Assembly (NCBI RefSeq): GCF_016908315.1
Contig: NZ_JAFBDQ010000005.1
Span: 1-64,000, forward strand
Source: Halanaerobacter jeridensis
Lineage (GTDB): Bacteria > Bacillota > Halanaerobiia > Halobacteroidales > Halobacteroidaceae
Direction of reading: 5' to 3'
Length of the DNA stretch: 64,000 nucleotides
Position 1 is the first letter of the stretch. Each line of letters begins with the position of its first letter. The position numbers and the translations under genes are program-made. The notes beneath the pieces were generated by a model. It saw only the letters and a program-made list of their open reading frames with translations, was not told where the DNA came from and searched no databases. Shown here in pieces: positions 7,998 through 53,835 of the stretch.

Positions 7998-8128
7998 TTT
8001 TTTTGCCCCCGTTTCAATTTAAGTAATTAATCTTCTAATTTAAATAAAATTAGTTCATCGATTAAAATCAAGAAAAATTATATTTGATCTTAATCTCTTT
8101 GGATAACCTCTTTTTCAAAATGGCTATG

Positions 8129-8263
8129 TCAGATAACGTCCCTGGGGTTCGCGACGTCTCGGGACTGCTCCTCTATTCTGCTCATCATCCTAAATTTCAT
8201 AAGTCAGTGCTACAACCCTGCCCTATCCTCTTACCTAGATGTCGCTAAGCTCATGTTATGTGA
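8129..8263 (-). repeat. attC-like cassette recombination site, copy 4
   Basis: TCAGATAAC-GTCCC-TGGGGTT-C-GCGACGTCT ... AGATGTCGC-T-AAGCTCA-T-GTTATGTGA. The heptads pair with one G:T and one mismatch. The flank AATGGCTATGTCAGATAAC complements GTTATCTGACGTAGCCATT of copy 3. Confidence 0.8.
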
Positions 8264-8749
8264 TGTAGTTAGCAAAAGATATTTTCTATATTCTCCAAAA
8301 CCTATGCAAACACTTCTAAACTATGCTAAACCTATTCTACTCACCTTTGCTAATGAGACTTTTCTTTCACAATCCTTCCCAAACAGCTCTAATTAGAGTT
8401 CTCTTACAACTATAATTCTATAACTTTAAAAAAAGAATAAACCGAAAGAGATAGAGTAGATATCCTTCCCTAAAATGGTTTCTAAATGTGTTTTTAACTT
8501 CACTATACTCAAAAATTTGCCTCTAAACCTGAGCATTTTCGCCGAAAAATTATACCAACGCCCAAAATATAGCCTAGGCATCGCTACTGGACTAACTTCA
8601 AACAAATATACTTCCACATAACTTATATAAGCCTTAACTCTATATTTCTTTTCCTTAATATAAAAAAGCATCTACTCTATCTCTTGACCGGTTATAGAAT
8701 TCTGCAGCATTTTCTATTCTAATACAAACAAACCCATTTGCTAACTATG

Positions 8750-8886
8750 TCACATAACGTCCCTGGGCTTCGCGACGTCTCGGGACTGCTCCTATACTTT
8801 TGCTTATCCTCATAAATTTCATAAGTCAGTGCTGCAACCCTGCCCTATCCTCTATACCTAGATGTCGCTAAGCCCATGTTATCCGA
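8750..8886 (-). repeat. attC-like cassette recombination site, copy 5
   Basis: TCACATAAC-GTCCC-TGGGCTT-C-GCGACGTCT ... AGATGTCGC-T-AAGCCCA-T-GTTATCCGA. The flank TTTGCTAACTATGTCACATAAC complements GTTATGTGATGTAGTTAGCAAA of copy 4. Confidence 0.8.
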
Positions 8887-8923
8887 CGCCCGGCTTCTAT
8901 AAAAAATATATCCCTCTTTTAAC

Positions 8924-9781
8924 CTAGTAACTTTTTAATATATCTAAATATTCACTTTTTGTTTCATTATCATATAAACCCTTCGCTTCATTTAGAGTTT
9001 CTATAGCCCAGTCTACATATTTTTGATTTACTTTTTTACTATTTTCTATTTTTTCTATAAATCTTTCTATTTTATTTCTCAATTTATTGTTTACTGATTT
9101 TAATTTTTCTTCCAATTGTTCATTCTCTTCTGCTAGTTCTTCATTCTCTTCTGCTAGTTCTTCATTCTCTTGCTCTAATTGTTCTTCAATTTCTTTTAAC
9201 ATTTCTAATCTTTGTTTTAACCGTTGTGTTTCCTTCTTTTCTTGTTGTGTTTCCTTCTTTTCTTGTTGTGTTTCCTTCTTTTCTTGTTGTGTTTCCTTCT
9301 TTTCTTGTTGTAATTTCTTATCAGACTGCTCAACTGCCTCATCTAATGCACTTAACTCTTCATCACTCCATTCAGTACTTTCCTTACTACTCTCACCTTC
9401 ATTTAATATTTCTTTTATTTTGCTTTTAACCCAACTAGGAGCTTCTATAAAATCTTTTCTCAATCTTTTATTCTCTGATTTCAACAACTCTTTATAAGCT
9501 AAATCTAAATTAGAAAGATTATCTTTAGTCAATATATCTATTTCAATTAAATTTTCTGCGAATTCTCCTGGTTTCATAAATTTATCTTCTAATTTGCTTA
9601 TTTCTTCTAATTCGTCATATAATTTAGTTTTAGCCTTATTAGTACTTAATTCAGCTTGTTTTAGTTTCTCTTCTGTTAAACCATAATCCTCATTTAACTT
9701 AGTAGTTACATCATCTGCTAAAACATTCACTGTCAAAACCAATAGCAATACAATCAATAATAAAACACTTAACTTCTTCAT
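8924..9781 (-). CDS. secreted coiled-coil protein with tandem heptapeptide repeats (285 aa)
   Basis: N-terminal signal-like segment MKKLSVLLLIVLLLVLTVNVLA. It carries a QQEKKET x4 repeat and an ELAEENE repeat, is strongly charged and looks helical. It is the sole ORF of the cassette between sites 5 and 6. Confidence 0.6.
   Translation of the reverse strand: MKKLSVLLLIVLLLVLTVNVLADDVTTKLNEDYGLTEEKLKQAELSTNKAKTKLYDELEEISKLEDKFMKPGEFAENLIEIDILTKDNLSNLDLAYKELLKSENKRLRKDFIEAPSWVKSKIKEILNEGESSKESTEWSDEELSALDEAVEQSDKKLQQEKKETQQEKKETQQEKKETQQEKKETQRLKQRLEMLKEIEEQLEQENEELAEENEELAEENEQLEEKLKSVNNKLRNKIERFIEKIENSKKVNQKYVDWAIETLNEAKGLYDNETKSEYLDILKSY
9224..9307 (-). repeat. 4 x 21-bp perfect tandem repeat inside the coiled-coil gene
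   Basis: The unit ttgtgtttccttcttttcttg is repeated four times on the plus strand and encodes QQEKKET x4. A second 21-bp unit (ttcattctcttctgctagttc) is repeated just over twice at about 9121-9170. Confidence 0.85.
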
Positions 9782-12760: not shown

Positions 12761-13801
12761 TTAGTTGATTAAATTATCTAACGGACTTTCTATGTTTGCA
12801 ATATCTCTTTTGCTGACATGAGTATATATTTCAGTAGTAGTAGAACTCTTATGTCCTAATAATTTTTGGATGTATCGTAAATCAGTTCCTTGCTCTAATA
12901 AATGTGTTGCAAAAGAATGTCTTAAAGTATGTACAGAAACATCTTTAGTAATATTAGCTTTTCTACAGGCTTTTTTGAATATTCTTTGTACTGATCTTGT
13001 AGTTAAGTGTTCTCCTTCTTTGCCTCCAGGAAACAACCTCTTTTCGGGTTGATATAATTGATGATACATTTTTATCTGTTTCAGACAAGATTCTGATAAG
13101 ATCGTATAGCGATCTTTTCTCCCCTTCCCTTGATTAATTTTAATTAGCATTCTATCACTATTAATATCATCCATTTTTAGTTTAACAACTTCACTAACCC
13201 TTAATCCAGCAGAATAAACTACATACAAAATTGTTTTATGTTTGGGGTTATCTAGACTATCTAAAATCTTCGCTACTTCTTTTTTACTTAATACTTCCGG
13301 TAACTTTTTTTCTTTTTGTGGTCGTGATAAAACAACTGAAATATCTTTATTATCCAATACTTCCCGGGCCAAGAACTTAATAGCACTAATCCCCTGGTTA
13401 ACAAATGAATGTGATAAATCTTGGTCTAATAAATCCAACAAATAATCCTTAATCTCAGCATCAGTCACTCGTGATAACTTCTTATTAATAAATCGTGCAA
13501 ACTGCCTAATATGACTCATATAAACTTTTTCCGTCTTTTCACTATAACCTTCTAAATTTAACTGATTTTTTAGTTCATTAATTACTAGTTCATTTTCTAA
13601 AGCACTGGAAATTATAATTCTTTCATTAACAAATTTCTCTTTTAACTGTTCTAAAATATCATAATCATAAGGTACTAACCATGCTCTAGCTTTAGGGGCC
13701 CATTCCCGCTTATTAATTTCTTTAATTTTTTTAATTTTTCTTTCCGAATAATCAAATTTAACAGCTAGTTGTCCTTCTAACTTTTCAATTCTTAATGTCA
13801 T
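12761..13801 (-). CDS. tyrosine recombinase (Xer/integrase family, 346 aa) with a ~70-aa N-terminal extension; candidate cassette integrase
   Basis: Catalytic motifs are present: AGLRVSEV, HTLRHSFATHLL and LLGHKSSTTTEIYTHV. Only about 55 aa separate GKGRKDRYTIL from HTLRHSF, so the ~100-aa spacing I recall for IntI1 and VchIntIA is absent. The N-terminus is MTLRIEKLEGQLAVKFDYSERKIKKIKEINKREWAPKARAWLVPYDY... Confidence 0.85.
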   Translation of the reverse strand: MTLRIEKLEGQLAVKFDYSERKIKKIKEINKREWAPKARAWLVPYDYDILEQLKEKFVNERIIISSALENELVINELKNQLNLEGYSEKTEKVYMSHIRQFARFINKKLSRVTDAEIKDYLLDLLDQDLSHSFVNQGISAIKFLAREVLDNKDISVVLSRPQKEKKLPEVLSKKEVAKILDSLDNPKHKTILYVVYSAGLRVSEVVKLKMDDINSDRMLIKINQGKGRKDRYTILSESCLKQIKMYHQLYQPEKRLFPGGKEGEHLTTRSVQRIFKKACRKANITKDVSVHTLRHSFATHLLEQGTDLRYIQKLLGHKSSTTTEIYTHVSKRDIANIESPLDNLIN

Positions 13802-17029: not shown

Positions 17030-17260
17030 TTAATCAAATTCCGCAAAGTTCTGCGCAAAAACAAAATTTAGTATCGGCTCCCCTTCTTGAAACTCCAACA
17101 TTTCTAATTTTAATTCTTTTCCAGCTAGTTCTTGTCTCGTCTTAATTATTTCTTTTTCTGGGGGAGTATTACTCATTCCTAACAACAAAATAGCTATTAT
17201 TAACATCAATCCTAACAACAATATCTTATTTTTGTTTAACATTTTATTCCCTCCAGTCAT
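17030..17260 (-). CDS. small membrane-anchored protein (76 aa; the start is probably at the internal MLNKNK)
   Basis: One hydrophobic helix (ILLLGLMLIIAILLLG). It overlaps the stop of the TetR gene by 4 nt. Confidence 0.4.
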   Translation of the reverse strand: MTGGNKMLNKNKILLLGLMLIIAILLLGMSNTPPEKEIIKTRQELAGKELKLEMLEFQEGEPILNFVFAQNFAEFD

Positions 17261-17898
17261 TTTCTAATAGACCGCTTAGCAAAATCGAACATAGCTGTTA
17301 TGATCTCTTCTACTTCTCGCTGATGATATCCTTCTAAATAAGCTTTCTTTTTAGCCACCAAACTATTAACTCCCATAATATTGGCCCACAGAATTAATGC
17401 TGTATCAGTAACATCTATATCTTCTCTAATACTTCCATCTGCTATTCCTTCTTTTACCGCAGTAGTTAAAAACTCAAAAGCCTGTTCTCCCTTTTGATAA
17501 TACTCCTGCATCAACTGATCATCACTACTAAAATCTTCTTTTTGGGTTTCATAATTAGCGATTGCCTTAAAGTAATCGGGATATTCTTGATACAACTCTA
17601 AAAAACTACGGCCAATTGTCTCAATCTTGACCCAACCATTTTGTTCAGACATAGCTTCTAAATTCTGTTCTATCAACTTAATAAATTGTTCAAAAGCCCG
17701 AATAATCACTGCTAAATACAACTGCTGTTTACTATTGAAATAAACATAAATAGTTCGTTTACTAAATTATGCTTCTTGGGCTACTTCACTCATGGTAGTA
17801 TCTTCATAACCGTAGGCAAAAAATAATTTTTCTGCCGCATCAACAATCTCTGTTCTATTTATTTCTTTTGCTTTTTCTTTTCTTGATTCAACGCCCAT
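17257..17898 (-). pseudogene. TetR-family regulator with an in-frame TAA
   Basis: The reading frame is continuous from the ATG at 17896-17898 (MGVESRKEKAKEINRTEIVDAAEKLFFAYGYEDTTMSEVAQEA) to the stop at 17257. It is broken only by the TAA at 17767-17769, inside the HTH (..EVAQEA*FSKRTIYVYFNSK..). Confidence 0.75.
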
Positions 17899-17981: not shown

Positions 17982-18018
17982 AGAAAAAAAGAACATATCT
18001 AATCTCAGACATGTTCTT
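17982..18018 (-). terminator. intrinsic terminator after the 1624-aa gene
   Basis: Stem AAGAACAT (17989-17996) with ATGTTCTT (18011-18018), followed on the minus strand by T7. Confidence 0.65.
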
Positions 18019-18034
18019 AATTACATATTAATTA

Positions 18035-21000
18035 TTAATTTTTTAAACTACTACCAATCAACTTTAAATTTTCTCCAATGTTATTTAATTCATTGACCAC
18101 TTGGATTACTTTTTGCCCGTCTTGATTGGACTTTTTCTTACGGTAGATTTCTTTTATTTCCTGCCATCTTTCTTCTTTCTCTGCTGTCATCCGTCCAGTA
18201 ATTTCATGAAACTTTAACAAACTAGCTTCAGCATGAGTTGCTAAGGTCTGAGCATCATTAATATAACTATTAACTATCAACTTATCCAATTCATCTTCAT
18301 TCATAATCGGGACTACTTTTTCTACAATTTTATTCATATTCCGGTAAGACCCCTGCAGTTTAAATGGTGGTTCTGTTCTATAATCATCATTTTGCGAAGC
18401 AGATTTGATATATTCCATATTAACTCTTAGCACTTCATCTCTAATCTGGAGACAACTTTCTAATACCTTTTGGGCTTCTTCTAACTCTTCTTCAGTATAA
18501 CTACCCTGCAAATTCATTTCTTCTTGCGTCTTAGTTGTAATATCCTCTAATAGTTGATAGATATCTGTTTGATTTTTCATATAAATATTATTTAAATATT
18601 GATTAGACGTGATAGCATTTTCAATATAACTAAGTTTAAAAGCCGATTCATTTTCTCTTAACATATCACCTAAATTATAGACATCAGCCCGATTGGCTAA
18701 CATATCAGGAATCTTAAATTTATCTCCACTTTCAGTATAAGGGTTACCGCCCATTACTACAGCTACCTTTTTACCTCTAAATTGATAAGTTTTACTTTGG
18801 CCTTGATAGACACCATCTATCTTTCTCTGACCGTCGCATAAAGAGATAAACTTCTGTAAAAACTCAGGGTTAGAATGCTGGATATCATCTAAATAAATCA
18901 TCACATTATTACCAATCTCCAGGGCCAAATTCAACTTCGCGAGTTCCTCCCTCGCACTAGCATTTTCAGCTTCCGCCGGATCAAGTGAGGTTACCCCATG
19001 CCCAATTGTCGGACAATTGACTTTAACCAGCATCATACTTAAGCGGTTAGCCACATATTCCACCAAAGTCGTCTTCCCATAACCCGGCGGAGAAATCATC
19101 AACAGCATTCCCATGTTATCAGTCCGCTTATCTTTACCAGCCGTTCCAATCTGTTTAGCTAGATTATCACCAATTAACGGCAGATAAACTTTATCGATTA
19201 ATTTATTGCGGACAAAAGAAGTCAGCACACTCGGCTTTAAATCCTCAAAATTAAACCTACTTTTAAGTTCCGCAATTTTAGCAAACTTTAACTGCTGAAA
19301 CTCCTGATACTGGGGCACAATATTGTTTTTAAAATTATCTAACTTAGCTAAAAAATCCGTTAAGCTAATTTGATACTGCCCATTATCAAGCTGAGGATGA
19401 GTACCTACTAAATTATCAATCTCAATTTGCGATTCTTCATTAATTATACGCCGCTGCTCATAATCATCAACCATTAAAATAGATAATACTTCATCAACAT
19501 AATGATTAAAACTCACTTCTTCTTCATGTAAATAAGACTGCAGCCATTCACTAATTAAAATATACTTTCCTTCCAAATCATCTGCTAATTTTTCCACTGA
19601 ACTATCAAAATCACTTTTAGCACTCTTAGCAATTAGAAAATCAGCAAACTGCTGGTGGATTTCTGCTGCTTCTTTACTAATTGCAAAAGCCTCATTTTGA
19701 CTTATTTCTTTGGCTAAATATTCTGCTGTTTTGTGATACTGACTACATTTAATCCATTCATTATCTGCTGTAAATGATTTGATTTCAGCCGCTAAGATAG
19801 GGATAAAACTAGCCACTAACTCCCGCTGCGAATACTTAGCTATGACATTAACTGTTTTTAATCTCCGCTGCAACTTTTCTTTTTTCTCTGATGCTAAACC
19901 AAACTCCCAAAACAAGTTTGCTACTGCTCTAACTTGAGGACTGTAAGCTGCTAATTCTAATTCACGGTATTTCTCTACTACTGCCTTTAGTATTTTTCGT
20001 CCATCATGATCGTGAACTCCAGTGGTATAATATTCATTAGAATGCTGCTGCATATAATCTTTAATGATTTTAGTTAAAGCCTGCTCATCTTTTTGATAGA
20101 GGTTATCTAATTGATTTTGCTCCTCATATTTTTTAAAGATATTATAGGCTAAAAACTCAGCTCGGTAAACTTCTTTATTTTCAGAAATTACTTCCTGCTC
20201 CCACACCTGCTCGTAAGCACTAAATTCTTCTTGTTCAATCGCTTCCCAAAAGTCAGTACCGGAAATGTGAAAATAAAAGCCGTCATCTTTACGCATTAAA
20301 CTTAACTCAGCTTCTTGATTATTAACTAAGAAATGATGATTGCCGAGCTTAATTGTATTCTCATCTAAAAATAATTCCTGCTTATCTTTTAACTGCTTGA
20401 TACTAGTTTCCCTTAACGATTTAAGTTTGTTTTCAATATCATCTGCTTTGGTGCTCGCTCCAAGGTCAATTAATTCTGCAATAATATCTCTTATCTTATC
20501 AACCATTGGACTAGTAGATAGTAGTTCATTAATCTCTGCTACTTCATCACAAGAATGAACCCGATTCTTTAAACTTTTAAAAATTCTATCCGCCGCATTA
20601 CCTAAAGAATCAATTTTTCGATTCTTCTGTTCCATTAGCTGCTGCTTTTTAGCTTCAAAAGTAGATACTATCTCTTCTCTTTTTTCAGTCAGTAGCACTA
20701 TAAACTCATCAAATTCAGAAAATTTACTCTCTAACTCATCAATTTGGATAATAATTTTAGACATATATGATTCAGTTTTCTCAACAGTAGTTGATAGTTC
20801 TAAATAATTAGCTACAGAATGAGTTAAAAGATTTAACTTAGAATAAAACTCAGCTTCTTTCTCCTGCGCACTTAAATTATCTATTTTGTTTTTGAGCTGT
20901 GACTTGTGCTGATTTAAATTAGAGAATAACGCCGAAATTTTATCAATAATCACTGAAGTTTTAGTCGCATCTTTGATCTTTAGATTATTAACTATATTAA

Positions 21001-22909
21001 TTAACATTTCTAATTCTTCAGAGACTTTTTTTATCTTTTTATTTAATTCTTCACCATCTACTACTTTCTCAATCTCCGGTAATTTATCCTTAATTTCTTG
21101 TACTTCTTCTTGATAGGGTTTTAAACTATTCTCCTGCAGCAGGAAGTTAATACAATCTTGGGCCAAGGTCTCCTGCTTTTCCTTAATCTCTTCCGCTAAT
21201 TCCTCCACCTGCTCTTCTTCCATAAACTGCAGGTCCTTTAGCCCCGCTATTTCGCCTCTCACCTGTCTAATTTGCGTTAGATATTTGACAAAGTCATTAA
21301 TATTCTCAAAACTAGCATAGCTAATTGCTTTTGTAATCTTAGTTACTTTTTCCTTAACTTGCTGATACTGCTGCTCGGTGTTTTCCTTGATTTTGCTGAC
21401 CTTATCAAACTCTTTAATCGCAATTGCTCCTGCTTCTTTAATCTTTAGGAGAGACTCTTTAATCTTAAAAGCTTCCGGTTTATCAAGCCAGAAATAGTTA
21501 TTAATAATATTTTCGGCATCATTAACTATATCTACATACAAACCATAGTAACTGTCATCTTTTTTAGATAAATTATACAGCGAATAACAATCTGCCATGA
21601 CCCTAACTATCTGCTTATTGCCGATATTATATAGAAATTCATCACTTTTCTCTGCAGCATCAGTGCCTACTTCTTTACCAAAAGGCGTTTCCCAAATTTG
21701 GATCGTATGGTTCCGTTTCGCCTCTTGAGCGGCAGTAAAAATTATCATCTCTCCATTATCAAAATGAGTGTAGCCATTACACATAATCGGCGTCTCAATA
21801 TCTTGATGAATAATATTATAATTATGAATTGAATATTCACCAGTTACGCGGTCATAAAAAATATACTGATAGTCTTCTCCATTGAGCGAAGCCTTTTTAT
21901 TTTGAAAAACCATATTGGCATAATTTAACTGAAAACGCTTGAATTCTCCTGACTGCAGAAAAATACCGTCAGGAAAGATCAAGCCTTGGTCTTCTGGTAA
22001 TAAAACCACTGATTTACCAATCGAGTCTATGCGCTCTACTTCTTCTGTCTTTTCATTAAAGACAATATAACGATAATTCTCTTCTTGATAAGGTTTAATC
22101 TTTAGTAAAATAAAGTTACCTACTACAGCGTAAAAGATAGTTGCATCATCAAGCTTTTGGTCTTTCCGTTCTACTTCATCAGAATAAATTCCCTTCCCTG
22201 AATTTGTATTATTCTCTATTTTTAGGGTTACATCGCCATTAATAGTTTCTACAAACAAACGATCGTCAATTGAAATATGGGGATAAAGACCAGCCACCTG
22301 GTCTTCTCTTGTCGTTTCAATCCATTCAATCTCCTGTTGAGGTGGATAAGAGATCTCATGACTAAATCTATTTCCTAAGTATTCTATAGTTTGATTATCT
22401 TTAACTAACCACTTGAAACTTTTAATATCATCTACATTATCCCCGGTTTGAAAGACCATATACAGAAAACCGTTCTTTTCATAAAACTTAGCAAAAAAAC
22501 TTTCTTTATAGTATTGATACAACTCTTTAAAGTCTGCTTTAAAACTCTCATCATCCAGCAGCGTATAATCCGATTTAACAAATCTAGTCCCATTATACTG
22601 ATAAAGAGAAAAGACATCGCTTAATTTAGTTTCAGATTTTAGGCCTAAGTGCACATTATAACCTAAAATAACCTGCTCCCCAACCGAAACTATATCACGC
22701 GGTATACAACTATTTTCTGTTACAATTGCTTCACTATTCTTTAATTTATTCTTTGTTTCTCCATAGATTTCTATTCGCTTTTCTTCTAATTTAGTTAATT
22801 TTTCTTGCAATTCTTCCGCTCGTTCTACTAACCGGTTTCTAATCACATTATAAGAAGCAAAACTATCCTGTTTTTCTTCTGTTGTAGATTCTTTAGCCAC
22901 TTTAACCAC
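18035..22909 (-). CDS. giant AAA+ ATPase-domain protein (1624 aa)
   Basis: The C-terminal third contains Walker A LLMISPPGYGKTTLVEY and Walker B NVMIYLDDIQH. A long central coiled-coil and an N-terminal beta-rich region are also present. The start lies 1 nt after the stop of the flotillin-like gene. Confidence 0.75.
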   Translation of the reverse strand: MVKVAKESTTEEKQDSFASYNVIRNRLVERAEELQEKLTKLEEKRIEIYGETKNKLKNSEAIVTENSCIPRDIVSVGEQVILGYNVHLGLKSETKLSDVFSLYQYNGTRFVKSDYTLLDDESFKADFKELYQYYKESFFAKFYEKNGFLYMVFQTGDNVDDIKSFKWLVKDNQTIEYLGNRFSHEISYPPQQEIEWIETTREDQVAGLYPHISIDDRLFVETINGDVTLKIENNTNSGKGIYSDEVERKDQKLDDATIFYAVVGNFILLKIKPYQEENYRYIVFNEKTEEVERIDSIGKSVVLLPEDQGLIFPDGIFLQSGEFKRFQLNYANMVFQNKKASLNGEDYQYIFYDRVTGEYSIHNYNIIHQDIETPIMCNGYTHFDNGEMIIFTAAQEAKRNHTIQIWETPFGKEVGTDAAEKSDEFLYNIGNKQIVRVMADCYSLYNLSKKDDSYYGLYVDIVNDAENIINNYFWLDKPEAFKIKESLLKIKEAGAIAIKEFDKVSKIKENTEQQYQQVKEKVTKITKAISYASFENINDFVKYLTQIRQVRGEIAGLKDLQFMEEEQVEELAEEIKEKQETLAQDCINFLLQENSLKPYQEEVQEIKDKLPEIEKVVDGEELNKKIKKVSEELEMLINIVNNLKIKDATKTSVIIDKISALFSNLNQHKSQLKNKIDNLSAQEKEAEFYSKLNLLTHSVANYLELSTTVEKTESYMSKIIIQIDELESKFSEFDEFIVLLTEKREEIVSTFEAKKQQLMEQKNRKIDSLGNAADRIFKSLKNRVHSCDEVAEINELLSTSPMVDKIRDIIAELIDLGASTKADDIENKLKSLRETSIKQLKDKQELFLDENTIKLGNHHFLVNNQEAELSLMRKDDGFYFHISGTDFWEAIEQEEFSAYEQVWEQEVISENKEVYRAEFLAYNIFKKYEEQNQLDNLYQKDEQALTKIIKDYMQQHSNEYYTTGVHDHDGRKILKAVVEKYRELELAAYSPQVRAVANLFWEFGLASEKKEKLQRRLKTVNVIAKYSQRELVASFIPILAAEIKSFTADNEWIKCSQYHKTAEYLAKEISQNEAFAISKEAAEIHQQFADFLIAKSAKSDFDSSVEKLADDLEGKYILISEWLQSYLHEEEVSFNHYVDEVLSILMVDDYEQRRIINEESQIEIDNLVGTHPQLDNGQYQISLTDFLAKLDNFKNNIVPQYQEFQQLKFAKIAELKSRFNFEDLKPSVLTSFVRNKLIDKVYLPLIGDNLAKQIGTAGKDKRTDNMGMLLMISPPGYGKTTLVEYVANRLSMMLVKVNCPTIGHGVTSLDPAEAENASAREELAKLNLALEIGNNVMIYLDDIQHSNPEFLQKFISLCDGQRKIDGVYQGQSKTYQFRGKKVAVVMGGNPYTESGDKFKIPDMLANRADVYNLGDMLRENESAFKLSYIENAITSNQYLNNIYMKNQTDIYQLLEDITTKTQEEMNLQGSYTEEELEEAQKVLESCLQIRDEVLRVNMEYIKSASQNDDYRTEPPFKLQGSYRNMNKIVEKVVPIMNEDELDKLIVNSYINDAQTLATHAEASLLKFHEITGRMTAEKEERWQEIKEIYRKKKSNQDGQKVIQVVNELNNIGENLKLIGSSLKN

Positions 22910-22910
22910 C

Positions 22911-24950
22911 TTACTCCATTATCTTTTTAATTGGAGTATTAGCTAGCCCTAGCTCTTTAGCTTTACTTAACACATGATTTAATACAGTTTTCTTAGTACC
23001 AGTGGCGTCATTCATATAATTCATAATTGCACTAGAAATAGTTAAGTTCTTAATTGCTTCTGAATCTAAATTAAAACTATCAATTAAAGATTTAACCTCT
23101 TGTTTAAACTCGTCTCTATCTCCACTGAAAAATGTATCTTTAACATCAGTTAAGACATCAGAATTATCAACTAATCTATCTACCTGTTTTCCTCTCGTAA
23201 TCGAATTAATTAAGTTATCAAAGAACATAGACTCGCCACCGACAATATCCACATTAGCATTCTGTAAGCCGTCTTTCAGGATTTCAGCCTGCGCTTGGGC
23301 AATTTGAGGTTGGATATTGATTTCGGCTAACTCTATTTCTTTATCTTTATTTAATCTCAACTTGAATTCTTCGTGTTCTTTACCAACAGAGTCTAATCGT
23401 TTCATTGCTTCCGCTTTCTTATTAATCCCCTCTGCCTCTGCTACAGCTTTGCCTTTAACTACCTCTGCTTCAGATTCTCCTGTTAACTTGATTGCTTTAG
23501 CTTCTGCTTCAGCCTGCATTTCTTTCACTTTAGCTTGAGTAGCACCTTCTTTTTCAGACGCTTCAGCTTTAGCCTTCATCACTCGAGCATCAGAAATACC
23601 TTCTACAGCAGATTCTTCGGCATTAGCATCAGCCATAATCTTAATCGATTCTGCCTTTTTGCGCGAAGTCTTTAATTCAGTATCAGCCTTAATAACCTCT
23701 TTTTCAGCTAATTCCGATTCACTTTGCTTCTCTGCTTCCGCTAATTTAATCTTTTGCAGTGCCTCTACTTCTGCATCACCTTCTGCAGTAGTAATATTCA
23801 CATCTTTAGCCCGCTTAGCTGCTGCTAATTCTTTAGTATCTTTGATCTTTTCTTCTTCCTCAGCTACCGACTTTTCCACCATCACTCGTTCGCGAATTAC
23901 TTCCTGCATATCTTTCTTTTCTTTCTCTAAGTTCTTATCTTTTTCTATTTGGGCCAAAGAAACTACCTTTTCTCGTTCCGTCTTTTCAATTTCTTGTTCC
24001 TTAGTCACCCGCTCTTCTTCCACAGCTTCAGTCGCCTCTTTAGACTTTTTGGCAACAATTATCTGACGATCCTTATTCTCTTCTGCAATTGCGATTTCTT
24101 CATCAGTTTTAATTCTCGCATTTTCAGACTTTAATCTCTCTTCTTCTTCCACAGTCTTGATTTGCGCACTTTCTCTAGACTTCATATTAGCAATTTCTCG
24201 CTTCTGTTTTTCCTCTGCTTCAGCCTGCTGGCGTTCTAATTCTAAAACTGCCTCTTTAGCACTGACATCCTGTTTGACAATTGTTTTTTCTTTGTTGCGC
24301 TGAATTTCATTTGCTTCCATAGCCTGCGTAGCAGTTAATTCTGTAATCTTTTTAATTCCTTCTGAATCAAGGACATTATTTTCATCTAAGTAATCCAATT
24401 TTGTCTGTTCTAAGTAATCAATCGCTGCATCATCTAAGACATAACCATTTAAATCAGTGCCAATCACCTGTAAAATTTCTTCTTTAAAGGTATCTCGTTC
24501 TGTATATAATTGAGTAAAATCAAACTTCTTTCCTACAGTTTTTAGAGCTTCAGAAAACTTAGCATCAAAAAATCTCATTAACGTATCCGTATCAGAAGCT
24601 TTTTTAGTCCCTAAAGACTTTGCTACCCGCAGCACATCTTCTTCAGTATGGTTAACCCGCACGAAAAAAGCTACTTTAATATCAGCTCGTAAATTATCTT
24701 TACAGACCAACCCATCTTTGCCGTCACGATGAATCTCTACTCTTTTTACTGAAACATCCATTGTCTCCCAGCGGTGCAGGATAGGAACCATCCAAGTTCC
24801 AGTGAAAGAAACTTTCGCTCCCCCAATTCCATTTCTGACAATTGCTGTTCCCTGACCTACTTTCTTGTAAAATAAGAGTAATAATAAAGGAAATCCAATA
24901 AAAACAAGAAATAAAATACCTCCTACTACATACAACACCATCTCTAACAT
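22911..24950 (-). CDS. flotillin-like SPFH/Band-7 protein (679 aa)
   Basis: N-terminal TM helix, then an SPFH-like core (GTAIVRNGIGGAKVSFTGTWMVPILHRWETMDVSVKRVEI...), then a long E/K/A-rich coiled-coil as in YqiK/FloT-type flotillins. Confidence 0.8.
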   Translation of the reverse strand: MLEMVLYVVGGILFLVFIGFPLLLLLFYKKVGQGTAIVRNGIGGAKVSFTGTWMVPILHRWETMDVSVKRVEIHRDGKDGLVCKDNLRADIKVAFFVRVNHTEEDVLRVAKSLGTKKASDTDTLMRFFDAKFSEALKTVGKKFDFTQLYTERDTFKEEILQVIGTDLNGYVLDDAAIDYLEQTKLDYLDENNVLDSEGIKKITELTATQAMEANEIQRNKEKTIVKQDVSAKEAVLELERQQAEAEEKQKREIANMKSRESAQIKTVEEEERLKSENARIKTDEEIAIAEENKDRQIIVAKKSKEATEAVEEERVTKEQEIEKTEREKVVSLAQIEKDKNLEKEKKDMQEVIRERVMVEKSVAEEEEKIKDTKELAAAKRAKDVNITTAEGDAEVEALQKIKLAEAEKQSESELAEKEVIKADTELKTSRKKAESIKIMADANAEESAVEGISDARVMKAKAEASEKEGATQAKVKEMQAEAEAKAIKLTGESEAEVVKGKAVAEAEGINKKAEAMKRLDSVGKEHEEFKLRLNKDKEIELAEINIQPQIAQAQAEILKDGLQNANVDIVGGESMFFDNLINSITRGKQVDRLVDNSDVLTDVKDTFFSGDRDEFKQEVKSLIDSFNLDSEAIKNLTISSAIMNYMNDATGTKKTVLNHVLSKAKELGLANTPIKKIME

Positions 24951-25163
24951 TAAATTTTCCTCCTCATAATAATATAGCTTTTATTTTTTAAGTTGATCCA
25001 ATTTATTTAAGGTTTAAATTTGCTTTAATTATTAAAACATAATTTTGCATATTTTTATATTTTATCCATTTAACATTAAAAAAATAATTAAATTAAATCA
25101 ACTTATTAACAGATATTCAAACTCTAGTTTTATTAAGAATCACCTTAACTCTTGTCCTAGAAT

Positions 25164-25778
25164 TTAATTAAGCAATTTTTCTTTAACTATATATAAATCC
25201 TTTTCTTCCACTTTAGATACTACCACCGCAGCACTACCTTTTAGGATTGTATCTCCTACAGATTTAACATTAATCACAATCGGATAGCCATCAACCATAA
25301 TTTCTGCCTGCCCTATATTTTCTGCATTAATAGTAGATTTCAACACACAATCTTTTCCCACTATCTCTACACTGCTGCTATCTTCCATGGCGGCAAAAAA
25401 TCCTGTTAACGGCTCAGTTAAAGCCTTGGTAAGCAAAACTGCTATAATTATATTTTGCCCAAAAATTAAAAATCCCCCGAACGATTGGGGAGAAATATTA
25501 GTATAATACACTAACATACTTAAGACCCACAATACAAGAAATAAAATAGTCCCATAAATCATAATTGGTACCGCACCAATATTAAGAAACTTAATTATTT
25601 TAACACCGCCGTCAAAATACAGATTCGAAGAACAATCCAGGTCGAAATCAAGATCAAAATCTATCACATTAACTGAAAAGACTCCTAATATCACTGACAG
25701 CCAATAAAAAATAACTATCATTAACAACATCGACGGCAGTATATTTATCCCACTAAACGCAAATGCAATATACTCCAT
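25164..25778 (-). CDS. NfeD/YqiJ-like membrane protein (204 aa)
   Basis: Several N-terminal TM helices and a C-terminal OB-like tail (GQAEIMVDGYPIVINVKSVGDTILKGSAAVVVSKVEEKDLYIV). It lies upstream of the flotillin-like gene, the usual NfeD-SPFH pairing. Confidence 0.7.
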   Translation of the reverse strand: MEYIAFAFSGINILPSMLLMIVIFYWLSVILGVFSVNVIDFDLDFDLDCSSNLYFDGGVKIIKFLNIGAVPIMIYGTILFLVLWVLSMLVYYTNISPQSFGGFLIFGQNIIIAVLLTKALTEPLTGFFAAMEDSSSVEIVGKDCVLKSTINAENIGQAEIMVDGYPIVINVKSVGDTILKGSAAVVVSKVEEKDLYIVKEKLLN

Positions 25779-25960
25779 AAACCTTCATTCTCCTTTTGGC
25801 TTAATGATATTCTCTTGTGTAACTTTCTCGTTACTCATAACTCATCATTGTTATTTTTGTTTTAATTACACTTGGCAGTATTGTAATAAAACCTACAACC
25901 TAGACTTGGCAATGCAAAGTCTCTACAACAGTTAGAATCTCCACAAAACCGGAGTTACTG

Positions 25961-26400
25961 TTTTTGTTTTTTCTGTTTTACTCTTCACTGATTATTATTT
26001 TTCTTGTTACTTTTTACTTGTTACTCTTTTCTTGTCACTGCTTTTTCTTGTTACTGCTTTACTCTTGCACTTGACTTTTATTTTGTGTCTCTTTACTGAT
26101 CACTGTTTTACTGTTTTTATGCTTTATTCTTGAATTTGACTTTTATCTTATCTCTTCACTGATTACTTGTTACTCATCACTGTTTTACTGTTGCACTTGA
26201 CTTTTATTTTGTGTCTCTTTACTGATCACTCATTACTCCTCACTTTTTTTTATCTCTTCACTGATTACTTATTATTGTTTTTCTATTTCACTGTCTTTTG
26301 TGTTTTTTACTGATTATTTGTTACTGATTACTCATCACTATTATTCTGCTTTACTCTTGTATTTGACTTTTATCTCTTCACTAGTCACTCATTACTAATT
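25961..26400 (-). repeat. strand-asymmetric modular degenerate repeat array (purine-rich on the minus strand)
   Basis: GCACTTGACTTTTATTTTGTGTCTCTTTACTGATCACT occurs at about 26067 and about 26192. TTTGACTTTTATCT..TCTCTTCACT(G/A)(A/G)T.AC occurs at about 26134, 26246 and 26362. The region is built from the words TCACT, TTACT and GATTAC. Stop codons are dense in all minus-strand frames. Confidence 0.7.
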
Positions 26401-27192
26401 ACTATTATTACCTTCGTATTTATTCAAACTAGCTGCCATTTTTCTCAAATTGACAATACTTAAATCTAATTCACTATCAGCATGTTGGGAAATTGTTTTT
26501 AACTTTGCTAATTTTATTTTCATATTATCTAAGTCTGTAATTGCTTGTTCATTAATTGAAAGATATTTATTAATTGCCTGCAATTCAGTTAAAATCATCT
26601 CTTTTTTCTCTTTTAATGAGTTAAGTTCATCTCCCATCTCTGCAGTTAACTCATCTTTAGTTTCTAGTAACTCAATTCTTGAATTAATATAATTAAGGTT
26701 AATATCCTCTATCGATTGATAAATATCTTTAACTTGGGCCAAATTATCTAAAATATTATAGTATACTTCTTCTGTGACCCTCATGAATTTTTGATAAGTA
26801 ATTCCGTTTTTATCTAATTTGATATCTAAAATATTCTTAAACTTTTCAAACTTTTCAATCACTCTTAATAATTGATTTAAAGCCAAACGAGCACTTTCCT
26901 GATAATGATTAGTATTTGTCAAATCACTAAATTGAGTCTTTAATTCAGCAATAAAGGAAATTATCTCCTGCTTATAAGAAACATTACCTGTTCGCATTTT
27001 ACTCTCATCTATATCTACTTTTAATTTTTCTTCTTTTTTATATCCATTGCTTAACGACAAATTTAGCACCTCCACTAATAAGGCACCTGCTAAAATCCCC
27101 CATCCAAACTGCTGCAGAGAGTCAACAAACAAAATGATTTCTACGCTCACTACAATTGGAACCAACTTTTGAATAAGCAATTTTTTAATCAA
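26395..27192 (-). CDS. membrane protein with a C-terminal coiled-coil (265 aa)
   Basis: Two N-terminal hydrophobic helices, then a helical region. The architecture reminds me of XpaC/TelA-associated proteins, but I cannot verify this. Confidence 0.45.
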   Translation of the reverse strand: MIKKLLIQKLVPIVVSVEIILFVDSLQQFGWGILAGALLVEVLNLSLSNGYKKEEKLKVDIDESKMRTGNVSYKQEIISFIAELKTQFSDLTNTNHYQESARLALNQLLRVIEKFEKFKNILDIKLDKNGITYQKFMRVTEEVYYNILDNLAQVKDIYQSIEDINLNYINSRIELLETKDELTAEMGDELNSLKEKKEMILTELQAINKYLSINEQAITDLDNMKIKLAKLKTISQHADSELDLSIVNLRKMAASLNKYEGNNSN

Positions 27193-30906: not shown

Positions 30907-33900
30907 TTAAGCATAACAAATTAGTTTATCCCTTTCTTTACGATTGAATTTAGAATTAGCTCCAGCTATTTCATCAATCCTATTAAGCGGTAATTTAATT
31001 CCATAATCACCGTTCCGAAACTTCTTAATCATTATCTTCCACTGCTGATTCGAACCATATTTAATTACTAAATCATACTTGTCGTCATAACAATTTTGGC
31101 TATACTCACAATATAAAGTGGCCGTTTTATATTTCTTGACTTTAACTTCATAAAAAGTCTTTATTCCATAAGTATTACCATCTGAATTAGCTATTCTTTT
31201 CAGCTTAGGTAACTGCTTAAAATTAAGTTCAGCTAAATTATGCAGTTGTCCAAATAATTTTAGTAGGATCTTGCCGCTGCCGTCTGATTCCATAACGACG
31301 CCGTTAAAACTACTTGTTCCTTCATCTTCTCGTTTGTAAGTTGGAGTTGATTCTCCGTTATAAAATATATATTGGTCTGGTGACTGACCTCGGTTATCTT
31401 GAAACTTGAATTTAGCATGGTTCAGACCGTAGTCTCCATTTTCAAAACCATTAATTAATAAGGCATTGTTATAGTCACCAAAATTAATTACTAAATTGCC
31501 CAGCTCTTTTAGATAAGTAAAAGTGATCTTATCACCATTTAAACAGACATTTTTTTGCGTATCCTTTGCAACTTCAGTCTTACTTAATAAACTAGCTGCA
31601 TCCCTATAGTCCTGCTTTCCAAACTTCAGCAGTATCTTTCCACTGCCGTTACTTTCCTCTTCTACAGTATTATTATGCTGCCAAAAACCGCTGCTGCCTG
31701 CAGTAAATTTATATTCACAGTTACTTCTATCCAGTTGGACTACCAAATTCCGACTGCCGTAGAGGACTGTGGCATAATTAACTACTTCATCTTCAAGATC
31801 GTATCTTCTCCTACTACCGTATAACACATCTTCCGGCACGATAAATTCTAAACCAAAGTCACCATATTGATAGTTATCTATTATGACTTTACCGCCGTAC
31901 TTAGAAAAGTACTGTTTGTTATTGCCAAAACTTGCCCCATAACTATAATTAACTTCTACAGTAGACTCTTCAGGAATATAAGCATAATAAAAGCCGAACT
32001 TATCCGTGAATTCATACTTTAATTTATTCTCTATAAGTTCTACTTCATTTTTAAATTCTAAGTCTTGACCTAATAACTTCTGCTCGCCATTCGGTAGAGC
32101 AATTTTCAATCCATCACCACTAATTTTAGAGTTTTCCTGTTGGCGGTGGGCATAAATCTCATAATACTGCAGTTCTCTGATTCCATCATCAACTATCTCC
32201 GCCTCTAAACTACCTTCTACTCTATGTACACGCGGGAGATAGATGCCATAATCTCCATTCACAAACTCATCTATTCTTGTCCTATTTAACTTTTCTGTCG
32301 TAAATTCAGTCACACCATCTTTAGTTGCGCTTGGCCCGTAATAAGCAATCAGTACGTTTTCTTCTGGTTGACTAAAATTAGGCTGTAAGTGATATTCTAC
32401 TTTAAAATCTTGCTCTGCAAATACTTCTTCATATATTTCAGTGCCATAATACTTATCTTCATCTTCTTTTAGATTATTTAAATACTCCTCTTGAATCTCA
32501 ATTTTCTTTCCTAACTGTACTTCATTAATTATGATATCAGTCTGGGGATCACTGTCTTGATTATAAGTATCTATTTGGCCCATGCCCATCACAAACTCAA
32601 ACGGATCTCTTTGAGACTTACTATTCTCTTCTAGTTTACTGCTGCCAAATAAATTATGCCTATTTGGTGGAGCCGTAATGTTCATTTTTATCTGTTGGGA
32701 AGAATTAGTAATTGGAGTGCTGTGGTAGATTGTTTCTTCCTCCTGCGTTACCCCTGCTGTCCCTAAGAATAACTGCTTGATGTTTCCAGATGATGACCAG
32801 CGCCATAATTTTTTCCTGTCTTGTTCATCTATTTTCTTTAGTTGCGCTAAAATAGCAGTATCTAAGCTATACTCACTATTATTTTCATCAATTACTATTG
32901 TATATTTACATTCATTATAAATAGTTATTAATATTTTTAGCAAAGAAGACTCCTCTATTGTTATCCATTCTTCATTTAAATCCTGGTTAATATTATTTTT
33001 AGTAACTTCATCTAACTTCCGACCTTGCTGTTTAACACTATTAAATAAAGTTGCCTTAGATAATTTAAATAAATTATCTTGAAAAGTTTCTTCAGTCTTC
33101 TTTCTACTAGCTGATTTATATTTTAAATATAACTCTTCTAATTCTTTTAAATCATTACCATCATCAGTTATTTCTAAAATTATATATTTTATTATTGAAC
33201 GCAAATAATCATAACTCAAACTATCTGTTAACTCTCCGATTTCTGCTGTCCCGCCTTTATAATTTTCTGGTTCTCCTATGTTACCTTTCTTTTCTAATAA
33301 TATATAAGGGTAAAATATATTAACACCATGCTGCTTAGCTAATTCTAATTCTTCTCCTCCTATTTCACCTGCCCCATCTTTAAGAGAACCTTCTTCTATT
33401 AAATCCGAATATTTTATTTCGCTATTATCTTTAAATTCTTTATCTACTAAATAGCAGTTACCTACATGCTTAAAAATTGTTCCCGTAATATCATAAGAAT
33501 TAGCATAATTTTGGAGATTTGACTTATCCAATTTTTTATATTTTTCAGCAAAACGTAATTTTCTATTTGCAAGTTCAAATGCTATCTCTTCTAATTCCTC
33601 AGCCTCTTCAATCGGCATAATTAAAGATAAACCAGATTCTTTTATCAAACTATCCTCTATTAATGCTTGTTTATAATCTTTCTGCAGTGCTAATAACTGC
33701 TCAGTAAATTGATCAGTATCACTAATATCTTCAAATTGTTGATAACCCTCACTAAGCAACTCATCTTTTAAGTTGTCAATCTTACCTTGGAGTAAACTTT
33801 TTTTATTTAAATCATTATTCAACTCCATCTGATAAGTAAATTGATTATAATCTCCTGCTTCCATTCTCTCTTCAATTGCTTTGATTTCTTGCTTGAACTT

Positions 33901-35025
33901 TTTTACTTTATCTGCTGCTTCATCAATCATATCTAATCTATGTTTTACTAATTCTCTAATAAATTTAATCCTATCTATTTCCGGAATTCCTGCCTCATTC
34001 TTTTTTACAAATTTAGAATTTATACTAGTTCCTTGAATAATATCTGACTTTTGAATTTCCTGATAGACCCTCTTATCAAGTTCATCTCTTAAGTCTCTTT
34101 CCCCTATTAAAACTTTATTAACTAAAAAGAGCAAAGCATCCTTATAGCCTAAAAACTCATTACCATAGAAATTCTTAAAATGTTTAATTCCAATTCCATT
34201 CCACGTCTTACAATAAACATGATGACCATTCCCTTGAGCCATAACTGCTGCATACTGAGCTAATCCTCCAGCTAAGGAATGTCCAGTGAAAGTGAAAGAG
34301 TAATTCTTATATTCCGAATGATCTTTTAAAATAAGTTTATAAAAATTTTCTGCCTTATCAAATTGCTCACTAGGAATACCAGCAGCAATCAAAGAATTAG
34401 TCATTGTATGATCTCTAGTTTCATTTGTCCCCCGATAAGCAATGATTATTTCTTTATCACCTTCATTTACAAAAGCTGCTGCATAAAATCCATCGCCTGC
34501 ACCTAAATCTCCTTCCAAGAACTTATCTATTTTACTATAAACTAAATCTTCTAATTGATTGACCAACGCCCAATTAGTCAAATTAAAAGAAATTGCCGCT
34601 TTATTTAATTTTGCTAGCACAGGTAACAGAGGTACTTGTTTTATAACTAATGATAATACATCCGGGTCAGTTCCTGCATCGATCATAGGACCTGCTTGAC
34701 CCATTACAAAATTCATAATTACAGATTTTATTTTATAAAATAAATTATTTGGCTCTTCTTTTCTTTCTAAATTATTTTCTCCATCTTTCATTAAAAATTT
34801 CCAATTACTTAATTGATCATAGTTAGTATAATTAACTTCCAATCTATTCTTTCTATATTTGGGATCATCTTTAAATCTATTTTCCGCTGAATTAAAAAAT
34901 ATTTCTTCTATAGTAGAATTTTCATCTCCCCCATCCGCTTTTTTACCATTATAAAAATCTTCATAAACCATATCACTAAAAATCAAACTTAAATAATCAT
35001 TTGCTTTTGGCTTTTTTCCACTCAT
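30907..35025 (-). CDS. large class-3 lipase-domain protein with C-terminal GDYG repeat modules (1372 aa); toxin-like
   Basis: Alpha/beta-hydrolase serine motif FTFTGHSLAGGLAQYAAV, preceded by IIIAYRGTNETRD. No signal peptide. The repeated modules end in FVNGDYGIYL, YQYGDFGLEF, FENGDYGLNH and FRNGDYGIKL. The same module (FKEGDYGLWL) is in the downstream DUF4280 protein. Confidence 0.7.
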   Translation of the reverse strand: MSGKKPKANDYLSLIFSDMVYEDFYNGKKADGGDENSTIEEIFFNSAENRFKDDPKYRKNRLEVNYTNYDQLSNWKFLMKDGENNLERKEEPNNLFYKIKSVIMNFVMGQAGPMIDAGTDPDVLSLVIKQVPLLPVLAKLNKAAISFNLTNWALVNQLEDLVYSKIDKFLEGDLGAGDGFYAAAFVNEGDKEIIIAYRGTNETRDHTMTNSLIAAGIPSEQFDKAENFYKLILKDHSEYKNYSFTFTGHSLAGGLAQYAAVMAQGNGHHVYCKTWNGIGIKHFKNFYGNEFLGYKDALLFLVNKVLIGERDLRDELDKRVYQEIQKSDIIQGTSINSKFVKKNEAGIPEIDRIKFIRELVKHRLDMIDEAADKVKKFKQEIKAIEERMEAGDYNQFTYQMELNNDLNKKSLLQGKIDNLKDELLSEGYQQFEDISDTDQFTEQLLALQKDYKQALIEDSLIKESGLSLIMPIEEAEELEEIAFELANRKLRFAEKYKKLDKSNLQNYANSYDITGTIFKHVGNCYLVDKEFKDNSEIKYSDLIEEGSLKDGAGEIGGEELELAKQHGVNIFYPYILLEKKGNIGEPENYKGGTAEIGELTDSLSYDYLRSIIKYIILEITDDGNDLKELEELYLKYKSASRKKTEETFQDNLFKLSKATLFNSVKQQGRKLDEVTKNNINQDLNEEWITIEESSLLKILITIYNECKYTIVIDENNSEYSLDTAILAQLKKIDEQDRKKLWRWSSSGNIKQLFLGTAGVTQEEETIYHSTPITNSSQQIKMNITAPPNRHNLFGSSKLEENSKSQRDPFEFVMGMGQIDTYNQDSDPQTDIIINEVQLGKKIEIQEEYLNNLKEDEDKYYGTEIYEEVFAEQDFKVEYHLQPNFSQPEENVLIAYYGPSATKDGVTEFTTEKLNRTRIDEFVNGDYGIYLPRVHRVEGSLEAEIVDDGIRELQYYEIYAHRQQENSKISGDGLKIALPNGEQKLLGQDLEFKNEVELIENKLKYEFTDKFGFYYAYIPEESTVEVNYSYGASFGNNKQYFSKYGGKVIIDNYQYGDFGLEFIVPEDVLYGSRRRYDLEDEVVNYATVLYGSRNLVVQLDRSNCEYKFTAGSSGFWQHNNTVEEESNGSGKILLKFGKQDYRDAASLLSKTEVAKDTQKNVCLNGDKITFTYLKELGNLVINFGDYNNALLINGFENGDYGLNHAKFKFQDNRGQSPDQYIFYNGESTPTYKREDEGTSSFNGVVMESDGSGKILLKLFGQLHNLAELNFKQLPKLKRIANSDGNTYGIKTFYEVKVKKYKTATLYCEYSQNCYDDKYDLVIKYGSNQQWKIMIKKFRNGDYGIKLPLNRIDEIAGANSKFNRKERDKLICYA

Positions 35026-53662: not shown

Positions 53663-53714
53663 AAAAAGACCCCTACTCGCTGAGAAGATAAAGTAATCCC
53701 CAAGCAAGTAGGAG
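53663..53714 (-). terminator. intrinsic terminator after LysM paralogue 1
   Basis: On the minus strand, CCTACTTGCTTGGGGATTACTTTATCTTCTCAGCGAGTAGGGG is followed by TCTTTTTT. Confidence 0.6.
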
Positions 53715-53835
53715 CCATCAATTGCTATATTTAGCAATAGTTAAAGGCGAGCTCCATCGCCTACCATTTAATTTTAGCAGATTAATTATAAGATTGCAAT
53801 CAAAATTTGTAGACTAATTATTTTACTGCCTTTTT

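Follow-up and report, generated by a model that had tools for sequence, protein, structure and literature searches.

The first 64,000 nucleotides (nt) of contig NZ_JAFBDQ010000005.1 of Halanaerobacter jeridensis (hereafter the window) contain a block of four co-oriented open reading frames (ORFs) on the minus strand, which encode a membrane protein of 265 amino acids (aa), a YqiJ-like protein of the NfeD type, a flotillin and a giant AAA+ ATPase of the DUF3686 family. The last three constitute a triad that is found in at least eleven phyla. We lean, with moderate confidence, towards the view that the block represents a membrane-associated scaffold-plus-motor module, likely for envelope or membrane stress, in which the giant would be the ATP-driven remodeller. 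The operon has already been described computationally by comparative genomics (Ravi et al. 2024, mSystems, PMC11237479), and the block itself is therefore not a new discovery. Relative to the account of the operon given in that paper, the locally new element is only the Halanaerobiales-specific extension with the 265-aa protein and TelA.

Conservation of the triad

A scan of one genome per species yielded at least 584 species with a homologue of the giant, and gene neighbourhoods were compared for a sample of 80 loci plus 10 further loci. A flotillin orthologue was encoded upstream and on the same strand in 62 of the 65 loci with more than 2.3 kb of upstream DNA, and a YqiJ-like gene was present in 56 of the 62 loci with more than 3.2 kb. 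The ten further loci, taken from Proteus, Pseudomonas (the megaplasmid pQBR103), Halomonas, Vibrio, Streptomyces, Deinococcus and four Halanaerobiales, all carried the YqiJ-like gene, the flotillin and the giant in that order. The phyla concerned are the Bacillota, Fusobacteriota, Bacteroidota, Planctomycetota, Verrucomicrobiota, Desulfobacterota, Kiritimatiellota, Omnitrophota, Pseudomonadota, Actinomycetota and Deinococcota. Since the same arrangement is met again in dozens of genomes that are only distantly related, the block is beyond chance. Moreover, the three proteins have correlated distance matrices (r ~0.72, Mantel p 0.001) and a shared evolutionary history. The initial annotation of this DNA had proposed the three genes as a linked unit, a proposal that would have been undermined by giants residing apart from SPFH and NfeD genes in other genomes; the neighbourhoods clearly bear the linkage out.

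The initial annotation had also stressed the tight coupling between the flotillin and the giant. Indeed, the two ORFs are separated by a single nucleotide in the window, but this is not a general property: the median gap is ~120 nt and exceeds 400 nt in 20 of 62 loci. The genes inserted there are mutually unrelated and comprise IS200-like Y1 transposases, DUF559-like genes, toxin-antitoxin-like genes and lipoproteins. The intergenic region looks like an insertion hotspot that leaves the gene order intact. Loci that bear such inserts include L016, L030, L045, L050, L039 and L047, all from other phyla. As the inserts in the 20 loci share no relationship, the idea that this region harbours a conserved fourth gene was rejected.

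The same neighbourhoods bear on a second suggestion of the initial annotation, namely that the triad is an anti-phage system of the abortive-infection type. The flotillin and the YqiJ-like protein would then sense the perturbation of the membrane by a phage, and the giant would act as effector or switch. Defence systems commonly include large ATPases with repeat sensor domains, a few of the loci lie beside restriction-modification-like or toxin-antitoxin-like genes, small selfish elements have inserted between flotillin and giant, and one copy of the triad is located on megaplasmid pQBR103. In addition, DynA of Bacillus subtilis provides a precedent, as outlined in PMC8844932, for a membrane-remodelling protein that can protect against phage. 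Nevertheless, none of the four proteins matched a model of PADLOC-DB v2 at E<=0.01. Homologues of the giant were absent from 50,697 phage records and numbered 13 in 72,556 plasmid records, most of them in records of more than 0.4 Mb (two Proteus plasmid records with a giant are ~4.1 Mb, and thus chromosome-sized). The conservation of the giant is extreme for a defence gene, with 44-50% identity between phyla over the full length and a mean pairwise identity of 49% over ~1600 aa, and at 50% identity the 1.84 billion proteins searched contain no more than 646 clusters of its N-terminal domain. Domain scans revealed no nuclease, protease, TIR, Sir2 or pore-forming effector domain, and the flanks of the window consist of ordinary chromosomal genes. 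A role in phage defence therefore appears improbable, and this part of the initial annotation finds little backing.

The giant DUF3686 ATPase

The giant (1624 aa, GTG start, positions 18035-22909, minus strand) has the layout of the DUF3686 family. The DUF3686 module (PF12458) is located at the N-terminus (aa 33-473, positions 21491-22813, minus strand; Pfam E 1.3e-166), DUF7902 (PF25472) in the middle (aa 595-676, positions 20882-21127, minus strand; Pfam E 3.9e-24) and a single AAA+ module towards the C-terminus (~aa 1266-1460, positions 18530-19114, minus strand), the latter recognised by its motifs and by weak matches to Pfam AAA and AAA_5. Structure models contain ~7 four-stranded beta blades between aa 55 and 407, which form a ~7-bladed beta-propeller held in a helical bundle made up of helix 10-49 and helices 416-499. 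The region that follows (~aa 500-1230) is almost devoid of Pro and Gly (0-6% per stretch of 50 aa over aa 501-1150), a composition that makes it presumably helical. Hydropathy analysis of the giant yielded no hydrophobic segments, in line with a soluble protein.

At least 859 homologues of the giant were found, and the 120 that were listed are 44-76% identical to it over 98-100% of the length. Nearly all listed full-length relatives have the N-terminal DUF3686 domain and a size of ~1500-2040 aa, and outside the N-termini of giants of this kind the domain is essentially not encountered. The protein from the window falls in the same 90% cluster as WP_338035325.1 of Halanaerobacter jeridensis. 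A homologue of 1711 aa, 45% identical over the full length, is present in EukProt P0081, which carries the label of the dinoflagellate Durusdinium trenchii; this copy could stem from horizontal transfer or from bacterial contamination.

The two motifs of the AAA+ module, PPGYGKTT (aa 1274-1281) and IYLDDIQH (aa 1338-1345), have key residues that are invariant in 15-32 homologues. They contain Walker A (GYGKTT, with K1279) and Walker B (LDD, with D1341 and D1342), whereas sensor 1 is N1389 in the sequence GNP. Because K1279, D1341/D1342, N1389 and R1407 are invariant among the homologues of the giant, it is expected to be an active ATPase. Its Walker B motif is unusual in having DD and not DE. 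A beta-hairpin (aa 1363-1376) precedes sensor 1, and a helical C-terminal domain runs to aa 1624. The module is structurally closest to the MoxR ATPases NorQ and CbbQ, with midasin and dynein as other neighbours, and it has both the MoxR-type fold and the pre-sensor-1 hairpin. Among the MoxR sequence models only AAA_5 reached its threshold (22.1 bits versus 22) and AAA_3 was unmatched, and no gene with a VWA domain was present among the window genes scanned. The giant is thus structurally MoxR-like but non-canonical as a MoxR system.

The similarity to MoxR brings in another possible function, that of an assembly chaperone. The giant would be scaffolded by the flotillin and would mature, or insert a cofactor into, one specific membrane complex; the client would be held inside a flotillin microdomain, and scaffold remodelling or membrane repair would play no role. 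We consider this rather unlikely. No conserved client gene accompanies the triad, the flanks of which vary by lineage apart from PspA/CesT or TelA, and those neighbours that do recur are involved in stress and are not enzymes. The lack of a VWA adaptor gene among the genes scanned argues in the same direction.

In the databases the giants are named 'DNA repair ATPase'. Were this name correct, the adjacency of the flotillin gene would be incidental. Apart from the name itself, a weak similarity of the P-loop to RuvB points that way (Pfam RuvB_N, E 5e-4 over 47 residues; NCBIfam RuvB, E 8e-5). However, the RuvB models score 20-22 bits versus cut-offs of 282-299 and match the Walker A region only. 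No DNA-binding, nuclease, SMC or Rad50 domain was found, the matches to PDB sequences all had E>0.09, and structural comparison points to MoxR, midasin and dynein. In addition, repair genes do not recur in the neighbourhoods, and the adjacency of flotillin and YqiJ-like genes in ~95% of the loci, across eleven phyla, implies that it is not incidental. We therefore give hardly any credence to a true DNA repair ATPase. The initial annotation was correct in its suspicion that this name had been assigned automatically and without evidence.

The flotillin and its YqiJ-like partner

The flotillin (679 aa, positions 22911-24950, minus strand) is of the YqiK type (SPFH2). It consists of one hydrophobic segment at the N-terminus (aa 1-32, by hydropathy), an SPFH/Band_7 domain (aa 32-171, positions 24438-24857, minus strand), a long helical region rich in Ala, Glu and Lys, and a C-terminal part. 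BLASTP aligned it with E. coli YqiK over 451 aa (E 3e-41, 28% identity), and the homology extends past the SPFH domain into the helical region. Pfam Band_7 was matched when aa 1-229 were scanned alone (E 1.1e-10, 42.3 bits, cut-off 23.6). The scan of the whole length gave no Pfam match and the search of PDB sequences no meaningful match, presumably because of the low-complexity helical region. NCBIfam FloT matched weakly (E 1.6e-4, 20.8 bits versus a cut-off of 700), and the profile of the family produced only a weak match to QmcA among PDB sequences, in the helical part. The N-terminal membrane anchor and the NfeD-type (YqiJ-like) gene directly upstream are both features of SPFH2 flotillins. 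The protein is 50-60% identical to its orthologues from other phyla. Its C-terminal part (~aa 520-679) is conserved among the triad-linked flotillins, where the invariant residues include G523, H526, E527, E528 and K530 and, further on, G571, G572 and F576.

The YqiJ-like protein (204 aa, positions 25164-25778, minus strand) has three hydrophobic segments according to hydropathy, an acidic D-rich loop after the first of these and a conserved soluble domain at the C-terminus. A profile of 41 orthologues was aligned to E. coli YqiJ by hhalign with a probability of 96.9% (E 2e-10, 184 columns), and the conserved C-terminal block aligns with the C-terminus of YqiJ. Pfam YqiJ_N was matched by 13 of the 41 orthologues (best E 3.6e-8), and the protein from the window alone stays below the cut-off (E 0.1, 13.2 bits versus 23). 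NfeD (PF01957) was matched by one of the 41 (E 0.005) and not by the window protein. As the latter fails the curated models, its membership of the NfeD family rests on the profile comparison. YqiJ and YuaF are themselves regarded as NfeD homologues and as partners of SPFH2 flotillins (PMC2636767). The NfeD-SPFH pair of the initial annotation was thus read correctly and, by comparison with E. coli YqiJ and YqiK, can be specified as a YqiJ-YqiK pair.

Lineage-specific neighbours

The genes that accompany the triad differ between lineages. In ~20 Bacteroidota loci it is preceded by genes for CesT_Tir_1 (E 5e-56) and PspA_IM30 (E 9e-41) and by a divergent gene with a helix-turn-helix (HTH) domain. 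The resulting layout (divergent HTH gene, CesT_Tir, PspA, YqiJ-like, flotillin, giant) is that of Dokdonia donghaensis ANH61663.1 as it appears in the supplement of Ravi et al. 2024. On pQBR103 the cluster starts with genes for PspA/IM30, a rhomboid protein, DUF2491, DUF350, DUF1190 and a member of the glutathionylspermidine-synthase family, and it ends with a hypothetical gene that matches the hidden Markov model (HMM) of the YqiJ-like proteins, followed by the SPFH gene and the giant. In Orenia marismortui (L089, positions 7814-8989 of that locus) and in the metagenomic locus L090 (positions 7819-8964) a gene for TelA (toxic anion resistance, PF05816) precedes that of the 265-aa protein, so that TelA, the 265-aa gene and the triad make up a block of five genes. 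The finding of membrane-stress genes (PspA/CesT, PspA/DUF350 and TelA) as neighbours that vary with the lineage suggests a relation to membrane stress, and it strengthens the membrane-stress or membrane-remodelling function that the initial annotation had put forward.

In the window the HMMs of the PspA, CesT and HTH neighbours from Bacteroidota matched nothing over the full 64 kb, and no TelA was found. The 265-aa membrane protein (positions 26395-27192, minus strand) is encoded by a lineage-specific accessory gene; it has two hydrophobic segments at the N-terminus, and its cytoplasmic part is helical. Its family is an orphan one, with just 13 clusters among 5.8 billion proteins, and two of these clusters bear a species name (Orenia marismortui and Natronospora cellulosivora). 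The gene is located directly upstream of the triad in L085 (70% identity), in L088 from Natronospora (55% identity) and in L089 and L090, and the linkage is thus kept in four other Halanaerobiales genomes despite differing outer flanks. It is absent from the 80 other loci, Orenia metallireducens included. The link of this gene to the block, as noted in the initial annotation, therefore holds, but within the Halanaerobiales only. Two identities considered for the protein were rejected: that of a disguised PspA (hhalign probability 0.2) and that of a TelA/XpaC-type protein (no relatives in Pfam or among PDB chains).

A possible mechanism

The features described above are compatible with the following mode of action. 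The flotillin, anchored by its N-terminal hydrophobic segment, would form an oligomeric SPFH-type scaffold on the cytoplasmic face of the membrane. By analogy with other SPFH/NfeD pairs, it would do so together with the YqiJ/YuaF-type partner, which is predicted to have three transmembrane segments. The soluble giant would be made from the same transcript, and in this genome its translation is probably coupled to that of the flotillin, the stop and start codons being 1 nt apart. It would dock on the scaffold via its N-terminal beta-propeller/helix-bundle module and its long helical arm. The last ~160 aa of the flotillin, which are conserved and lie outside the BLASTP alignment to E. coli YqiK, provide a candidate docking site. 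The giant would oligomerise via its MoxR-like AAA+ module, and the hydrolysis of ATP could then power the assembly, disassembly or turnover of the flotillin lattice, of its clients or of a PspA/IM30 polymer. In the Bacteroidota and on pQBR103 the PspA partner would be the product of an adjacent gene; in the genome studied here it would be encoded at another site or be missing. The 265-aa membrane protein, and in some species TelA as well, would be additions to the module in the Halanaerobiales.

Several observations weigh against this scheme. MoxR ATPases normally work together with a VWA-domain protein, and no gene for one was seen among the genes scanned. The Walker B motif with DD instead of DE implies that the rate of hydrolysis could be low, and the propeller has numerous invariant polar residues, which might reflect a ligand-binding or catalytic role and not simple docking. 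Not all loci have the complete triad: the giant lacks the flotillin in three of the 65 loci (L026, L040 and L060), and a recognisable YqiJ-like gene is missing in L039, L075 and L077. In addition, a PspA homologue is lacking in the window and nearby in most loci outside the Bacteroidota, and the link to PspA may therefore be lineage-specific. Finally, the literature search yielded no experimental work on the family of the giant; no paper was found that mentions DUF3686 or PF12458, or 'DNA repair ATPase' in combination with flotillin.

A more far-reaching possibility, which we put forward tentatively and regard as clearly less probable than the general scaffold-plus-motor module, is that the DUF3686 giant is the missing energy-consuming partner of flotillin and PspA (ESCRT-III-like) scaffolds, and hence a functional counterpart of Vps4. 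The MoxR-like AAA+ modules would form a ring with six long helical arms that end in beta-propellers. Such a ring might grip the conserved C-terminus of the flotillin, or PspA, and drive the disassembly or turnover of the lattice during membrane repair. According to a 2025 review a Vps4-like ATPase appears to be absent in bacteria (PMC7619361).

Organization of the locus and its surroundings

The ORF listing reproduces exactly the boundaries of the four genes in the initial annotation, and the Walker motifs, the 1-nt junction, the terminator and the ORF-free spacer reported there were all recovered. The stop codon of the flotillin (TAA, positions 22911-22913) is separated by one base from the GTG of the giant, which begins at position 22909. 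A GGAG sequence resides inside the final codons of the flotillin, ahead of this GTG, and the junction is compatible with translational coupling. The ATG of the flotillin is itself preceded by a strong ribosome-binding site (GGAGG). The operon is closed by a hairpin that resembles an intrinsic terminator (positions 17989-18018, minus strand), located 17 nt past the stop codon of the giant and composed of a 13-bp stem and a 4-nt loop, followed by the T-run TTTTTTCTT.

The spacer between the YqiJ-like gene and the 265-aa gene (positions 25779-26394, 616 nt) is devoid of ORFs of at least 60 aa, as the initial annotation had it, but it is not featureless. On the minus strand positions 25980-26394 are purine-rich and contain degenerate tandem repeats of ~63-65 nt, with a core array at 26024-26244 (3 copies, 74% matches); the motif CAGTGAAGAGATAA recurs. 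The array is absent in the relative L085, the giant of which is 92% identical and the spacer of which measures 385 nt. A conserved element of 46 nt (TTGCCAAGTCTAGG..TAGGTTTT..CTGCCAAG, positions 25871-25916, minus strand) is located ~100 nt before the start of the YqiJ-like gene and contains a direct repeat of TGCCAAG. It is near-identical in the window and L085, whereas the rest of the spacer diverges, and it is not conserved in more distant Halanaerobiales. We consider it a candidate promoter or operator for the triad. An Rfam scan of the whole window gave no matches in the operon or its spacers, and a scan for consensus promoters was uninformative (60 sites versus 49 expected).

The flanks of the window encode ordinary chromosomal functions: a pfkB kinase, an M14 peptidase, a protein with a metallo-beta-lactamase fold, a flavodoxin/Fe-S protein and a disrupted TetR gene. 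The latter (positions 17257-17898, minus strand) lies directly downstream of the terminator and has an in-frame TAA (17767-17769) within the HTH (EVAQEA*FSKRTIY), which leaves a C-terminal ORF of 154 aa; it is either a pseudogene or the result of a sequencing error. A tyrosine recombinase (Phage_integrase plus SAM-like N domain; positions 12761-13801, minus strand) is encoded ~4 kb downstream of the operon, and a similar recombinase is found at a comparable position in L085 (15395-16435), where it adjoins a gene for a metallo-beta-lactamase-fold protein. The recombinase may be of the Xer type or belong to an integrated element. Elsewhere in the window there is a second very large ORF of 1372 aa (positions 30907-35025, minus strand) with only a marginal match to Lipase_3 (E 9e-5), and a fluoride riboswitch (positions 53702-53770, minus strand; Rfam RF01734, 48.7 bits versus a gathering score of 34).

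Significance

Flotillins and PspA/IM30 are central to current ideas on the organisation and repair of bacterial membranes. The triad constitutes a concrete, widespread and strongly conserved candidate for the missing Vps4-like remodelling ATPase. Its existence will be unsurprising to specialists, but it is a good target for experiments and is present in cultivable and well-studied genera such as Flavobacterium, Bacteroides, Proteus and Streptomyces, as well as on a Pseudomonas megaplasmid. The name 'DNA repair ATPase' has been propagated in the databases and is misleading; its correction is warranted.

Comparison with known systems

The closest relative of the block is the operon outlined by Ravi et al. 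2024 (PMC11237479), in which a CesT/Tir-PspA dyad is combined with a YqiJ/YuaF-type protein with three transmembrane segments, a band-7/flotillin and an AAA+ protein with a beta-propeller and a coiled-coil. The window has the same three core genes in the same order, and its giant combines the same architectural elements, that is beta-propeller repeats, a putative coiled-coil and an AAA+ module. The full form described there includes the dyad, which the window lacks; since neither PspA nor CesT is encoded in the 64 kb, the block corresponds to the 'abbreviated' operons without PspA, which according to that paper are more widespread and may work with a PspA encoded elsewhere. The Halanaerobiales-only 265-aa protein, and TelA in the sister species, are additions that its section on the operon does not mention. 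That section amounts to one paragraph of contextual inference, and contains no structure model, assignment to an AAA+ clade or experiment. The remark in the initial annotation that the coupling to the giant is much less understood is thus true in the experimental sense, but both the operon and the architecture of the giant had already been described. A link of PspA to Band7/FloT and NfeD was also drawn by Popp et al. 2022 (PMC9239133), a paper in which no mention of the giant was found.

Both upstream genes are homologous to the YqiJ-YqiK pair of E. coli (YqiK, E 3e-41; YqiJ, probability 96.9%). In this pair, and in YuaF-FloT of B. subtilis, the NfeD-type gene likewise comes first, and the topology matches too, the partner having three transmembrane segments and the flotillin being anchored at its N-terminus. 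However, the E. coli operon has no giant ATPase, and yqiK is followed by sibD/ibsD. The flotillin from the window exceeds YqiK in length by 126 aa; the two can be aligned by BLASTP up to ~residue 441 of the window protein.

With respect to the motor, the MoxR proteins (NorQ, CbbQ, RavA) and the AAA modules of midasin and dynein share only 14-16% sequence identity with the giant. Proteins of the MoxR family measure 250-500 aa, whereas the AAA+ module of the giant is located at the C-terminal end of 1624 aa. The giant differs also in its Walker B (DD versus DE) and in having no VWA/MIDAS partner gene among the genes scanned. The closest known systems also include those in which an SPFH cage is paired with an AAA+ protease, such as HflK/C-FtsH. 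In ESCRT-III/Vps4 and in the PspA-YdjGHI system of B. subtilis the same logic would apply, namely that of a membrane polymer or scaffold that is combined with a remodelling ATPase. In the latter system an SPFH protein links PspA to the membrane. Genes for PspA/IM30 adjoin the triad in the Bacteroidota and on pQBR103.

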